Below are positions 32,879 through 38,331 of a stretch of 64,000 nucleotides of DNA, one piece after another (positions within the stretch are counted from its first letter, which is position 1; every line of letters begins with the position of its first letter). Origin of the DNA: a virus; the IMG/VR virus record IMGVR_UViG_3300037419_000842, one strand, 5' to 3'. Position numbers and translations under genes: made by a program. Under the pieces are notes generated by a model. The model was given only the letters and a program-made list of their open reading frames with translations. It had not been told where the DNA came from and made no database searches.

Positions 32879-34630
32879 TTATTTAGCATCTAACGTTCCT
32901 CTTGTAATCCAATCCCCATAAGTTGCACAAAATGCATCAATCGTTATAGAATCACTTGTTGTAAGAACTGTTGACTTAGAAGCATAGAAACTCACCTTAA
33001 TTTGAGTACCAGTAAAAGTCTCTGGAACAATGAATCTGTAAGTGTAGATTGAATTTAAAGGATCAGAAATATCAAGTGGATTCAATGTTGCAAGAACTAT
33101 ATTATTCACATCAGTAACTTCAACTGTACGATCAGGCAATCCAGAAGTTCTATAGTTTGCCGCCAAGTAGATTGGCGCTCCCTTTAACGAAGAACTCACT
33201 GTAAATGTGTAAGTCACCTTATTACCAAGAATAGAACCATTAACTGTTTCAGCAGGTGCAATATTCTCATACAACTGTTCAAGCTTTCCAAATCGTCTAA
33301 TTCCATTTACTTTACCACCGAATACAAGACCTTCTTGCAAACCGCCAGCTAAAATAGTAATTGAAGCATTGACAGTATTGTAAATAGTAAGATTTTCTGG
33401 AATAGTCTTAACAGTTATGTCACCACTATTTTGTGCTGTAATCTTTCCACTGTACATTGCAAGATCAATAATATCATCACTCAAATGATCAAATGAACCT
33501 TCAGTTTCGATAGTTGTTGCTAATGCTACAGAAGGAGTTGCACAATAGATAAGACTATCAGTATAGCCATTTCCATCTCCATAACTATTTCCCTTGAACG
33601 AAAACTTACGTTCTGCACTTGTAGGAGAATTAACATTCTCAAGACAAATAACATATTTAGGAGCAATTGGCGCTGATCCACCATCACTAATAGCACCTTT
33701 GATAAAGTGATTATTGTTAATTTGGATATTTCCTTGCTGATCTCCACAAACTTGAATGCAACCTTTGTAAGATTCTCCCAAACTCAATGTACTTCCACCA
33801 GAAGTTTGAAGACCACCACAACGACTAAATGTGTTCTCATTAATAGAAAGATCATGATTCTGTTGTTTCAATTGAACTCCAACGCCTGAAACTCTATCAA
33901 ACCAATTTCCTTTAATCATATTGTTATCACAACCATACAAGGAAATAGCTGAGTCTCTGTCGATCCATTCAAACCTATTATTTAAAATTCTATTTGCTCT
34001 TGCTTGGACAAGATCAAAGCCTTTGTTTCCAACAAAGATATTATCATTCCATTCGCAATCTACTAAACGTCCTTGAAAAACTGTTTTATTAACTGTATCT
34101 CCACTGTTGTTATAAACTGTAAATGCACACTTTCTAAAATGAAAGTTTTGACACATTTCAGTTGAACCAGATGGAGCATTGAGAACCACCATATTCTTAA
34201 ACGAACAATCCTCAATGTCAAAGCTTCTACAATCACCTGAAATAACAAGACGAGTAAAACCTGTGAAAGAAAGATTTCTCAACGAAACATGATAACCTTG
34301 ACTTGGTTTGTCAAACAGTTCACTTGTATAATCACCAACTAAAACTGATCCACCTTTAGAGAATACATCACCGTAACTTGCACCACTCCAGTAGTGCTTT
34401 ACTGTTGATCCTCCAATAAATGTAATATTATCATAGTTAGTAAGTTTACCACGAATAAGCCATTCGCCTTCAGGAATATAAATGATTTTACATGACGTTG
34501 AATTTTGCGCTATATTTATTACTCTTTGAATGATACTTGTGTTATCAAAATCAATTTGTTGCCATCTTGGGATAGCTCCAAAATCTGCAATATTTAATGC
34601 ATTATTAATCATATTAATCACTATAAACAT
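32879..34630 (-). CDS. Right-handed beta-helix (pectate-lyase-like) protein, putative depolymerase
   Basis: NIADFGAIP...DNTSIIQ...IYIPEGEW N-terminus; Asn-ladder repeats. Confidence 0.75.
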   Translation of the reverse strand: MFIVINMINNALNIADFGAIPRWQQIDFDNTSIIQRVINIAQNSTSCKIIYIPEGEWLIRGKLTNYDNITFIGGSTVKHYWSGASYGDVFSKGGSVLVGDYTSELFDKPSQGYHVSLRNLSFTGFTRLVISGDCRSFDIEDCSFKNMVVLNAPSGSTEMCQNFHFRKCAFTVYNNSGDTVNKTVFQGRLVDCEWNDNIFVGNKGFDLVQARANRILNNRFEWIDRDSAISLYGCDNNMIKGNWFDRVSGVGVQLKQQNHDLSINENTFSRCGGLQTSGGSTLSLGESYKGCIQVCGDQQGNIQINNNHFIKGAISDGGSAPIAPKYVICLENVNSPTSAERKFSFKGNSYGDGNGYTDSLIYCATPSVALATTIETEGSFDHLSDDIIDLAMYSGKITAQNSGDITVKTIPENLTIYNTVNASITILAGGLQEGLVFGGKVNGIRRFGKLEQLYENIAPAETVNGSILGNKVTYTFTVSSSLKGAPIYLAANYRTSGLPDRTVEVTDVNNIVLATLNPLDISDPLNSIYTYRFIVPETFTGTQIKVSFYASKSTVLTTSDSITIDAFCATYGDWITRGTLDAK

Positions 34631-34965: not shown

Positions 34966-35039
34966 TGGTGCCCTCTACTGTAATCGAAACAGTGACTACG
35001 GGTTACAAAGCCGTTGTTTTACCACTAAACTAAAAGGGC
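34966..35039 (-). tRNA. tRNA-Thr(UGU)
   Basis: ACGG-CTTTGTAAC-CCGT; acceptor GCCCTTT/AGAGGGC; CCA. Confidence 0.85.
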
Positions 35040-35042
35040 ATT

Positions 35043-35136
35043 TGGGGCGTATGACGAGGTACGATCTCGCAAAGGGTCAACAAACCCTTACAGGATTCAC
35101 ATTCCTGCGTGTACTTCCAATCCCACCACACACGCC
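35043..35136 (-). tRNA. tRNA-His(GUG) with G-1:C73 and a long variable arm
   Basis: 8-bp acceptor GGCGTGTG/CATACGCC then CCA; loop ATGTGAA; variable arm AAGGG/CCCTT. Confidence 0.75.
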
Positions 35137-35178
35137 ATAAAAACAACTTTTTATAGTTTAATAAAGTTAATAAAAATC

Positions 35179-35516
35179 ATTTCCTGCCATGACAGCCCTT
35201 TATAAACTGGAAAGGACAAGTCATAACAACCTATGAAATTAAACAAGGGATTTTATCGAATGGGCGTGATACCCAATGTATCACTAAGCCCTGATATTTA
35301 AGACTTCAACGTTGACTCATGTGAATTCTGAGTCGTAAACTTTAAGGTTTGATCTCTGAGCTTTGAGCTTTATATCACATTTTTAATTATCCCCAATGGA
35401 TTAATACTCTGCACGAGTTATCAAATAGTTCCTTTAACAGAACAACCTAAAAGTTGTAAATTTAACGTAATTTACGAAACGTATGAAGTTCTCCAGTTTT
35501 CGTCATGTCAGGAAAT
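35179..35516 (-). ncRNA. Candidate ~340-nt structured ncRNA downstream of the coiled-coil gene
   Basis: 15-bp closing helix (1 mismatch) plus an 8-bp second helix, several internal hairpins and a 7-nt periodic track; no credible ORF. Confidence 0.7.
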
Positions 35517-35611
35517 ATCAATTATTTATTTGCACCTTGCGGGACGCGCCAAGTCATCTTATTCTTATTGCAATAGGGAAGATGACTAGAAACCTAGAGA
35601 CCTATTTGACA

Positions 35612-36238
35612 TTAACCGCTAATTTCAATGTCTGTGCGCGTATTACTCTCACTCAGAAGAAAGTCAGCTTCTTTGTCAAATTCTTCAATCTGCTCAGTAA
35701 GTTTATCAATTGTCTTTTTCAGATCAATTGGATCAATAAACTTAACTTCATTGTCAAGATTGAATCCTTTCGTAATTTCTTCTACGGAAGCTTCTTTGCC
35801 CTTAGTTTCTTTGCCAAGAGCATTCTCAATACGCTTCTCAAGAGCTTGTTTTGCCTTCTCTTGTTCACGTGCGAGAACTTGAAGTGTCGTAGTGTACTGA
35901 GTACGCATCATGTTCAAAGCTTGACGATCATGAACAATTGAATTTTTACGTTCAATTACCTCTGCCACACTCATAACTTTTCCACTAGGGAAAGTTACCT
36001 GAGTGATTGCATTAGATGCAATGATTGCAGATTTAATCTCAGCACGACGAGCGATCAAGTCTCTGATAGATGCAAGAGATGCTTCAGCATTCTTTGCAAA
36101 ATTTTCAGGAGAAATATGACCACCAATTGGTTTAGAACCAACTTGAATACTTACGAATGCCGCTTCGCTAATTGCACGATTAATTCTAGCCTCAAGTACT
36201 CCCAATTCCGACAATGCTCTGTGTACGCTCAATTTCAT
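35612..36238 (-). CDS. 208-aa coiled-coil protein, resembling the DIP1984-like family
   Basis: MKLSVHRAL..L..LEARI; internal pseudo-repeat (MSVAEVIERK; SNAITQV / SNTRTDIEI); IDP motif. Family call unverified. Confidence 0.6.
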   Translation of the reverse strand: MKLSVHRALSELGVLEARINRAISEAAFVSIQVGSKPIGGHISPENFAKNAEASLASIRDLIARRAEIKSAIIASNAITQVTFPSGKVMSVAEVIERKNSIVHDRQALNMMRTQYTTTLQVLAREQEKAKQALEKRIENALGKETKGKEASVEEITKGFNLDNEVKFIDPIDLKKTIDKLTEQIEEFDKEADFLLSESNTRTDIEISG

Positions 36239-36332
36239 TAATAAATCTCTCCCTTTTCATCTTTGATATTTAAATTTGATTAGTAAATATAATTCATTTT
36301 TTATTACATCTGTTATTTTCGACTGTTTTCAT

Positions 36333-36361
36333 ATTATACCATTTTATCAGCCACTTGTCAA
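36333..36361 (-). promoter_or_regulatory. sigmaA-type promoter for the coiled-coil/ncRNA/tRNA unit
   Basis: TTGACA-17-TATAAT with TG extension. Confidence 0.7.
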
Positions 36362-36388: not shown

Positions 36389-36474
36389 TGGCGAGGGTGG
36401 GAGGATTCAAGCCCCTTAACAATGGTTTTGGAGACCATCTGCGCTCTCTGGCGACATTTAAGTTTCCTACCCCC
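36389..36474 (-). tRNA. tRNA-Trp(CCA)-like with an insertion between acceptor and D arm
   Basis: ATGGT-CTCCAAA-ACCAT; G73 CCA; 5' region about 10-14 nt too long. Confidence 0.55.
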
Positions 36475-37164: not shown

Positions 37165-38331
37165 TTATTTAAGCCCCAAATTAATGCTTGCTGTAATTGC
37201 ATCTTTAGCCGCACTAAGAGGATGAATTCCATCTCCTGTAAATCCAGCTTTCCACAATCCAGTGCTATCAGACGCTGTTTCGATAACCGCCGCAACATCA
37301 AGGACATTTACAGGATACAATCCTGCACGAAGATTCTGATTAAATGTTGCACGTTTAGTATTGTAGCTATTACCAGAATAAACAGTTTGATTTCCAACTG
37401 TTGCCCAGTTATCCGTACTAGTTGTTCTTGGTGTACTTGTGCTTTGATATACAACCAGTCCAATAGATTTCAAGTTCCTCCACAAGTCTTTAATGTATCC
37501 TTCTTGTGTAGCAAATGAAGCTGGAAGGTTCCAATCATTCGCTCCGAATGTCACAATGGCATGAGTAAAATATTGTAACAATCTCATGCGATATGCATTA
37601 CCAGAGTTTTGTTGCATCGTTGTAACATCAGAGCCGGGACGAGATAGAATAGAATAACCATATTTATTCTGAACTTCTAATACAGGCCATCCATCACCAT
37701 TAGCATCTCCAACCATAGAATCTCCAATAAGTGCGAATGCAACAGCATCGTCTTTAGCTGGAACTCCAATGATAACCGAAGGGCCATATCCAGATTCAGT
37801 TGAAGCACCAAGAGCACCAGTAGTGTTAACCTGATCTCCAGTAGACTTTCCTTCTCCACTAGAGCCAATAAGACCAAGACCTTGAGGATATGTTTGTCCA
37901 TCCGTAGGGACAGAAACCCAAATTCGTGTAAAGAATGTAGCGCCTACAGGAATATCGCGGTAAATTGGATCAGTCAGAGCAAAGCCACCAATATCAAGAG
38001 TTTTGTTTCTAACTCCACCGAAGAATAGGCGAGTCATTAATCCGTTATATTCCAATGCTACTGCAATGGTGATTGGATTTCCATTACTTGATTCAGTTGT
38101 AACCGTAGGATAGAAGTTTGCAAAACCAAACTGCAAGCTGTGACACTCTGTTTTCATAACGTGAGAATAACGATACGTAACACCCGCAGTTGTGCCAGCA
38201 AGCGTAGTACCTACATGATGTGCCGCGCATCGTGTAGCAACTTGAATTGGTCTTTTCTTTGCAATTCCTCCCACAAACTTATTAATTTCAGACTTCCTTA
38301 TGTCATTGGGGAAAATATTATTTTTGTCCAT
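37165..38331 (-). CDS. SGNH/GDSL hydrolase
   Basis: Blocks IGDSM, FGAND and DGIHP. Confidence 0.8.
   Translation of the reverse strand: MDKNNIFPNDIRKSEINKFVGGIAKKRPIQVATRCAAHHVGTTLAGTTAGVTYRYSHVMKTECHSLQFGFANFYPTVTTESSNGNPITIAVALEYNGLMTRLFFGGVRNKTLDIGGFALTDPIYRDIPVGATFFTRIWVSVPTDGQTYPQGLGLIGSSGEGKSTGDQVNTTGALGASTESGYGPSVIIGVPAKDDAVAFALIGDSMVGDANGDGWPVLEVQNKYGYSILSRPGSDVTTMQQNSGNAYRMRLLQYFTHAIVTFGANDWNLPASFATQEGYIKDLWRNLKSIGLVVYQSTSTPRTTSTDNWATVGNQTVYSGNSYNTKRATFNQNLRAGLYPVNVLDVAAVIETASDSTGLWKAGFTGDGIHPLSAAKDAITASINLGLK

Follow-up and report, generated by a model that had tools for sequence, protein, structure and literature searches.

A helical phage protein and a large structured RNA encoded directly downstream of its gene look like a conserved two-part module of tailed phages

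Within a 64,000-nucleotide stretch of viral DNA (the window) from IMG/VR record IMGVR_UViG_3300037419_000842, a complete phage record of 169,219 bp, the minus strand carries a gene for a 208-residue protein of the phrog_1491 family and, downstream of it, a non-coding RNA (ncRNA) whose two ends pair with each other. An original prediction, made from the letters of the window alone, had proposed here a ribonucleoprotein (RNP) system consisting of a coiled-coil protein and a closed structured ncRNA. We find that protein and RNA recur in very different tailed phages, T5-like phages included, in what looks like a conserved two-part phage module. That the RNA is structured and genetically coupled to the protein is well supported, and we consider it highly probable.

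Organization of the locus

Read along the minus strand, the locus comprises a promoter, the 208-residue open reading frame (ORF), a 95-nt spacer with a hairpin, the 340-nt ncRNA, tRNA-His and tRNA-Thr. The features up to the end of the RNA are:

36333-36361, minus strand: promoter of sigma-A/sigma-70 type, TTGACA, 17 nt, TATAAT, with extended -10 TG
36247-36256, minus strand: ribosome-binding site AAAGGGAGAG of the 208-residue gene
35612-36238, minus strand: ORF, gene of the 208-residue helical protein (phrog_1491), distantly DIP1984/DUF6847-like
35552-35587, minus strand: hairpin in the spacer between stop codon and RNA, 8-bp stem, without U tract
35178-35517, minus strand: the structured RNA as a whole (340 nt), present once in the 169-kb genome

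The dedicated sigma-A promoter of the original prediction stands, with 12 of 12 hexamer positions matching and the TG in place, as does the 208-residue gene, for which an all-helical model was obtained. The spacer hairpin, likewise proposed, is present in the minimum-free-energy fold but is conserved in neither sequence nor position; relatives have other small hairpins in their spacers.

Architecture and covariation of the RNA

The case for the RNA draws its strength from nhmmer matches and covariation among relatives; the single-sequence fold z-score of the RNA in the window is only -2.6. With nhmmer, the RNA matches nine relatives at expectation values (E) of 1e-8 to 1e-21. Contigs as long as 170 kb were located for relatives of the protein at 50-62% identity, and in every case a homologous non-coding element separates the protein gene from tRNA-His. 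RNAalifold applied to ten copies yields a closing helix of 16 plus 9 bp with double compensatory changes at most pairs (22 of 39 pairs compensatory). The elements of the RNA in the window are, from 5' to 3':

35502-35517, minus strand: 5' strand of P1, followed by the conserved junction GAAAAC at 35496-35501
35490-35499, minus strand: 5' strand of P2 (AAACUGGAGA)
35456-35482, minus strand: PK1, probable H-type pseudoknot with S1 ACGU/ACGU and S2 GUAAAUU/AAUUUAC
35288-35375, minus strand: A-rich track with 7-nt period, about 12 units of approximately ARAGNUY
35262-35291, minus strand: hairpin GGGC-UUAG-stem-GCCC, specific to the Bacillus-type clade
35248-35260, minus strand: conserved single-stranded motif UUCGAUAAAAUCC, its AAA.C core invariant in 26 diverse RNAs
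35245-35249, minus strand: 5' strand of Pa (CCCUU)
35204-35213, minus strand: 3' strand of P2 (UUUCCAGUUU), between the two Pa strands
35196-35200, minus strand: 3' strand of Pa (AAGGG)
35178-35193, minus strand: 3' strand of P1, preceded by invariant GCU at 35194-35196 (GCT invariant in 26 sequences)

P1, a 16-bp helix, joins the two ends and closes the RNA, and because the 3' strand of P2 sits between the strands of Pa, the core of the RNA is a pseudoknot. The order of elements is P1, GAAA, P2, periodic track, AAAYCC, Pa, GCU and P1', and it includes three invariant unpaired elements: (i) GAAA after P1, (ii) AAAYCC before Pa, and (iii) GCU before the 3' strand of P1.

A set of 34 RNAs, made up of metagenomic copies, finds from a DNA pattern and copies from cultured phages, ranges from 291 to 445 nt in length and contains 28 distinct P1 sequences. 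Over the 12 innermost pairs of P1, pairing reaches 95% with the cognate partner, as compared with 57% when partners are taken from other RNAs. G-U pairs outnumber A-C pairs by 55 to 3, which assigns the structure to one strand only, the one that has the protein gene's polarity. Covariation extends to P2 (AAACC+N with N+GGUUU), the best helix averaging 7.6 bp for cognate and 5.7 bp for non-cognate partners. In an alignment of 30 copies to R1, a covariance model of the 3' domain only, 96.7% of the cells of Pa are paired and double changes occur at four of its five pairs; none of 500 shuffles reached its score, and the signal collapses when the partner is slid by one column. R1 misses the copies of the Pseudomonas phages XD2 and SYP and of Erwinia phage SNUABM48, which were recognized by eye and by an anchored helix search.

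Both long-range pairings of the original prediction are thereby seen to be real and to covary: 35502-35516 with 35179-35193 extends to the 16-bp P1, and 35492-35499 with 35204-35211 is contained in P2, the compensatory changes in P1, P2 and Pa running across 30-34 RNAs. As for the internal hairpins it had listed, the one at 35262-35291 is kept in the Bacillus-type clade with compensatory changes in its inner stem, and GACTCA/TGAGTC recurs in the clade, inside the periodic track; TCATA/TATGA is not supported, as a competing helix, Pb (AGG/CCU), suits the relatives better, if only moderately so (75% paired).

PK1 recurs with differing sequences in the T5-like phages, Mydo, Chester, Rebecca, BCP8-2 and the soil clades, and its S2 covaries at six of seven pairs within the clade of the window. 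Since its single-sequence scores do not beat shuffles, we grade it as a probable H-type pseudoknot only. Between PK1 and the 3' domain lies the periodic track, about 85-100 nt in length and largely unpaired. Its identity at lag 7 is 0.38 in the window, and the family means at lags 7 and 14 are 0.39 and 0.37, as compared with 0.29 in shuffles, with a signal in nearly every lineage. Among close relatives (loci L017, L033, L040, L044, L045 and L050) the track is nearly identical.

The protein and its predicted self-association

The protein matches phrog_1491 over its full length (E 3.3e-60; residues 2-207 aligned to positions 4-210 of the 211-position profile), and the family comprises 2,110 clusters at 50% identity, uniform in size, with homologs in 726 phage records. 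AlphaFold predicts a compact helical bundle with a small beta cap (predicted local distance difference test, pLDDT, 91.4), the N-terminal half being basic and the C-terminal half acidic. A profile search against the sequences of the PDB gave no useful match for the protein, and its close structural matches are, in every case, uncharacterised phage proteins. The top solved structure in Foldseek is 3kdq (DIP1984; E 3.5e-3, template-modelling (TM) score 0.45/0.58, root-mean-square deviation 12 Å), an Atlas search returned a DUF6847 cluster at TM 0.50/0.58, and the Atlas and AFDB searches weakly indicate DUF6847 and septicolysin-type proteins. The DIP1984-like architecture of the original prediction receives support from 3kdq as the best solved match, a helical bundle of pseudo-repeated architecture that may share the fold of the phage protein; against it, DIP1984/DUF6847 (PF20935) yields no sequence-profile match, TM reaches only 0.45-0.58, and the phage protein is about 55 residues longer.

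A model of four copies is consistent with the oligomerising protein that had been foreseen. Its symmetric interface score is 0.53 while the best control scores 0.00, at least 91% of contacts are common to the runs, and the pLDDT of the partner is at least 82. The interface mark is reached by 20 of 30 known homodimers and by 1 of 23 monomers, a calibration which is only rough for the present case with its own alignment and four copies. By this model, which passes its controls, the protein is predicted to self-associate, or dimerise.

The label 'tail fiber' attached to phrog_1491 is unsupported: the protein is modelled as a compact helical bundle, and its gene stands among early and tRNA genes, outside the tail module.

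Linkage of protein and RNA across phages

Fifteen cultured phages with a homolog of the protein were sampled, a diverse group in which the RNA-positive members cover nine host genera: T5-like DT57C, whose homolog gene is T5.085 (alias T5p083); the Bacillus phages BCP8-2, Xoo-sp15 (a Caeruleovirus by taxonomy), G and KLEB27-3; Brevibacillus phage Jenst; Clostridium phage D-1873; Lactococcus phage P1048; the Pseudomonas phages phiPsa374, XD2 and SYP; Proteus phage Mydo; Vibrio phage Chester; and the Erwinia phages Rebecca and SNUABM48. In 14 of the 15, a homologous RNA of the same architecture begins 6-90 nt past the stop codon of the protein gene, in a gap of 290-450 nt that is unannotated or dubiously annotated. 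The sole case in which no RNA was detected is KLEB27-3 (vB_BauM_KLEB27-3), where the protein gene is followed by a terminator and a coding sequence (CDS). Among relatives in the clade of the window, the RNA lies downstream of the protein gene in 11 of 11, so that the linkage expected from the original prediction is found at both distances, while protein identity falls to about 27-32% between phages of Bacillota and Proteobacteria.

The linkage also holds in reverse. RNAs found with a DNA pattern blind to the protein have the protein ORF directly upstream wherever the contig extends far enough, with the exception of L016. There, at L016:27-458, R1 scores an intact 3' half of the RNA at 93.5 bits, and coding-like sequence takes the place of the 5' half and of the protein gene; an insertion or a chimeric assembly may be responsible. 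In the genomes of the window phage, DT57C and phage G, R1 detects the RNA exactly once each. Most pattern matches in metagenome and genome collections failed the covariance model and were set aside as chance. A search of viral contigs for related loci with the single protein gave no confirmed relatives, and blastn against the phage collection returned only a weak match in the coding region.

Several copies show features of their own. Annotated small hypothetical CDSs overlap the RNA at L071:2303-2437 (Mydo gp259), L074:2524-2787 (Rebecca gp205) and, on the opposite strand, L078:2073-2249 (Jenst gp011), and are probably spurious or mis-started. In the jumbo phages Rebecca (L074:2240-2330) and pEa_SNUABM_48 (L080:1840-1900), the variable region of the RNA holds a T-arm-like GGUUCGAUUCC followed by a D-arm-like UAGCUCAGUCGGUUAGAGC; the segment looks like a circularly permuted tRNA-like insert, and ARAGORN makes no call on it. 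In Clostridium phage D-1873, a drum RNA (RF02958; 47.7 bits, above the gathering score) is found at L070:2898-3005, about 430 nt downstream of the RNA and in the same gene-free stretch. The T5 copy probably maps to the deletable tRNA region of the T5 genome or to its vicinity, in which case laboratory growth can probably do without the module.

Transcription unit and neighbouring genes

An intrinsic terminator is located directly 3' of the RNA in at least eight phages (BCP8-2, phiPsa374, Chester, P1048, XD2, Xoo-sp15, Jenst and G), and in phage G the 3' strand of P1 continues directly into the U tract. Because terminators directly follow the RNA, protein gene and RNA form one unit. The locus of a Roseburia prophage copy (L058) is present in mouse-gut metatranscriptome runs from two studies. 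In one complementary DNA (cDNA) library its contigs cover 643-1711 only, that is, gene plus RNA, ending just before the next tRNA, and contig depth, a weak measure, is about 21-31 over the RNA as compared with 12.9 over the CDS. These contigs are suggestive of co-transcription of gene and RNA; contigs as such cannot prove transcription.

Two tRNA genes follow the RNA in the window:

35043-35135, minus strand: tRNA-His (GUG) with long variable arm, 42 nt past the RNA; neighbour in the clade of the window only and no general part of the module
34966-35039, minus strand: tRNA-Thr, after tRNA-His

The original prediction had linked the RNA to these tRNAs and to its release by RNase P/Z. The tRNAs do follow in the window, across a 42-nt spacer, but neither the linkage nor such a release is general: tRNA genes occur near most loci, DT57C, phiPsa374, phage G, L018 and L026 have none inside about 1.5 kb, and in the phages named above the RNA is followed by a terminator. 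Adjacency to tRNA is frequent and non-obligatory, and given the five loci without it tRNA-coupled release is a local arrangement.

The tRNA-His itself is 93 nt long. Its G-1:C73 pair and its CCA are encoded, its variable arm is long and class II-like, and it escapes the Rfam tRNA model even with E relaxed to 10. Its counterparts in relatives measure 72 to 89 nt, which implies that the long arm has been gained or lost within the clade. Suppressor-type tRNAs directly follow tRNA-His in relatives, at the place held by tRNA-Thr in the window (L002:4120-4193, L004:4127-4199, L007:4785-4859, L008:4207-4283, L009:4194-4269 and L012:1451-1522; anticodon CUA, UUA in L004), a possible sign of stop-codon read-through or recoding among some phages of the clade. 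At 36393-36474 on the minus strand of the window a weak resemblance to tRNA is seen (19 bits to the Rfam tRNA-Sec model, loop CUCCAAA), on which ARAGORN makes no call; relatives have tRNA-Trp(CCA) at that position, and the signal may be an aberrant or decayed tRNA-Trp. In a gut-phage clade, a conserved hairpin of about 40 nt (GGUGGCGGUACUGCUAUUCUAGCGGUAUCGUCA) is found between the RNA and the next tRNA (L017:3060-3110 and the equivalent place in L033, L040, L044, L045, L050 and L058). Finally, the module of the window is flanked by genes for a pectate-lyase-like beta-helix protein, a candidate tailspike or depolymerase, and a GDSL/SGNH esterase (32879-34630 and 37165-38331, both minus strand), which places the island of tRNAs and RNA among genes acting on the host surface.

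Comparison with known systems

The original prediction had been unable to assign the closed RNA to GOLLD or ROOL, and no model of Rfam 15 matches it, with E allowed to reach 10 for the window and 1 for six other loci; the only matches are tRNAs and the drum RNA of D-1873. ARAGORN finds no transfer-messenger RNA (tmRNA) in the window, a literature search found no description of the RNA or of T5.085, and a catalogue of 10,006 viral candidate RNAs does not name the RNA in its text (PMC10690425).

The nearest concept is VIPR, in which an RRM/RAMP protein, Vipr, and a vrRNA of about 100 nt with 5-nt YNNGG repeats, the NN being hypervariable, form an RNP (bioRxiv 10.64898/2026.04.26.720920). Both systems combine a phage protein with an ncRNA in which a short-period repeat tract is capped by a pseudoknotted part. 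The present protein, however, is a helical bundle for which structure searches gave no RRM/RAMP match, and its RNA has 290-450 nt, a 7-nt period, a conserved tract and a long closing helix. A VIPR-like programmable guide was dropped on account of the conservation of the track among close relatives.

ROOL and GOLLD (RF03087, RF01998) are likewise large structured RNAs of phages and prophages, often beside tRNA genes, and constitute RNA-only assemblies (PMC12286853). The RNA described here has no match to their covariance models, is about half their size or less (291-445 nt, as against about 580 nt for ROOL and 800 nt for GOLLD), and differs in having other core motifs, the 7-nt periodic track and an obligate neighbouring protein gene.

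The pairs tmRNA-SmpB and RNase P RNA-RnpA resemble the module in that RNAs of about 350 nt with paired ends and long-range pseudoknots go with a small dedicated protein and ties to tRNA or translation, but the fold of the partner protein differs. The RNA was rejected as a tmRNA (no match with ARAGORN or Rfam, a P1 of 12-20 bp without conserved ACCA tail, and neither a tag reading frame nor a tRNA-like acceptor or CCA end) and as an RNase P RNA (no Rfam match and no recognised conserved region). A type III toxin-antitoxin system of the ToxIN kind, with repeats of about 36 nt upstream of an endoribonuclease toxin, was rejected too, the RNA here lying downstream of the gene, with 7-nt repeats, beside a helical bundle. 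For the track we propose a functional analogy with the rings of TRAP and HutP, oligomeric proteins which read short motifs at fixed spacing, HutP reading NAG every 7 nt. The protein folds are unrelated, TRAP and HutP act in cis in attenuation that responds to amino acids, and no homology is claimed.

Interpretation of the module

Taken together, the most economical reading is that of an RNP whose protein occupies the periodic track, which we infer and hold to be fairly probable. The module would consist of the phrog_1491 helical protein and a cognate ncRNA of about 290-450 nt, made as a common transcript with the RNA directly 3' of the stop codon. The closed core, in which the invariant GAAA, AAAYCC and GCU hold the P2/Pa pseudoknot, displays the periodic track; the predicted dimeric protein would bind the RNA, most likely by covering the track with repeated copies. 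In the window the consensus sigma-A promoter would drive the unit and RNase P cleavage at tRNA-His could set the 3' end, which in other phages would be set by the intrinsic terminator. Large phages, many of which carry tRNAs, would thereby possess an accessory RNP working in trans, which might target or titrate a host RNA or translation component that is universally conserved, or might counter host defence.

Several observations weigh against this reading. The protein has no recognisable RNA-binding domain, its overall isoelectric point is near-neutral to acidic (5.4-6.7), and a search of Pfam and NCBIfam returned nothing beyond sub-threshold noise for it, with no match to DIP1984/DUF6847 at E up to 1. 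KLEB27-3 did not yield the RNA when motif search and R1 were run over its whole 217-kb genome. Within the RNA, Pb is moderately paired and the single-sequence scores of PK1 are no better than those of shuffles. RNA-seq data for the window phage were sought, and only DNA runs from soil and rhizosphere carry it; the metatranscriptome contigs stem from a distant relative and may include DNA carry-over. Binding between protein and RNA is a step that we infer, and the function of the module, including a trans-acting accessory role on RNA, translation or defence, is a guess.

The foremost alternative is that the RNA works in cis, as a 3' untranslated region which acts only within its mRNA, protecting it from 3' exonucleases and/or serving as an operator through which the protein regulates itself. 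It speaks for this view that the RNA always lies on the same strand immediately past the stop codon, that a promoter of its own was not seen, that a terminator often comes directly after it, and that in phage G the 3' strand of P1 runs on into the U tract. Yet stability or autoregulation usually calls for far less than a fold of 300-450 nt that is doubly pseudoknotted, includes a periodic track and is retained from Bacillota to Proteobacteria phages while the protein drifts to about 27-32% identity, and the metatranscriptome contigs are, by the weak measure of depth, deeper over the RNA than over the CDS. We therefore regard a purely cis-acting RNA as unlikely. About as unlikely, or slightly more so, is a machine centred on the RNA, which by itself would be a ribozyme, a scaffold or a homo-oligomer of the ROOL/GOLLD kind, with the protein as a helper or unrelated. 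The ornate fold, its invariant unpaired GAAA, AAAYCC and GCU, a protein that is not basic overall, and the occurrence of the protein without the RNA in KLEB27-3 are all compatible with it; the near-obligate adjacency, seen in both directions and in very distant phages, argues against it, as does the finding that the RNA without the protein was encountered only in the disrupted L016 copy.

An element acting at the level of DNA, in which the 7-nt repeats are iterons and the inverted repeats belong to an origin or a partition site that the helical protein binds, would account for direct short repeats, AT-richness and flanking inverted repeats, but is very improbable given that the helices accept G-T and hardly A-C, which fits only a single strand of this polarity, that crossing helices covary, and that the element lies within a promoter-to-terminator unit. 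Equally improbable is a divergent member of tmRNA, RNase P RNA, ROOL, GOLLD, VIPR vrRNA or type III antitoxin, for the closing helix and pseudoknots (tmRNA, RNase P), the phage tRNA neighbourhood (ROOL, GOLLD) and the pairing of a periodic repeat RNA with a phage protein (VIPR) are superficial likenesses set against the lack of an Rfam 15 match and of an ARAGORN tmRNA, the all-helical protein, and a conserved track with period 7 and not 5-nt YNNGG.

Returning to the RNP with its protein on the track, it is tempting to go further and to speculate, as a reading somewhat less likely than not, that it is a hitherto unrecognised RNP, ancient and widespread, from T5-like phages to the jumbo phages of Bacillus, and that the helical protein polymerises on a 7-nt-periodic track held in a doubly pseudoknotted clasp so as to exert a new function, such as the capture of a tRNA or ribosome component or the disarming of an RNA-targeting defence.

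If the module is what it appears to be, a gene pair has been overlooked in hundreds of sequenced phages, including the model phage T5 (T5.085/T5p083), T5-like phages of the BASEL collection, phages of the Bacillus cereus group and phage G, its protein mislabelled as 'tail fiber' and its RNA left as an empty gap or under doubtful small ORFs. The annotation of public records would then be corrected, and tractable systems, T5 with E. coli among them, allow a direct test of the proposal. The RNA would constitute a new class of large structured RNA with a dedicated protein partner, of which few are found in bacteria and phages.

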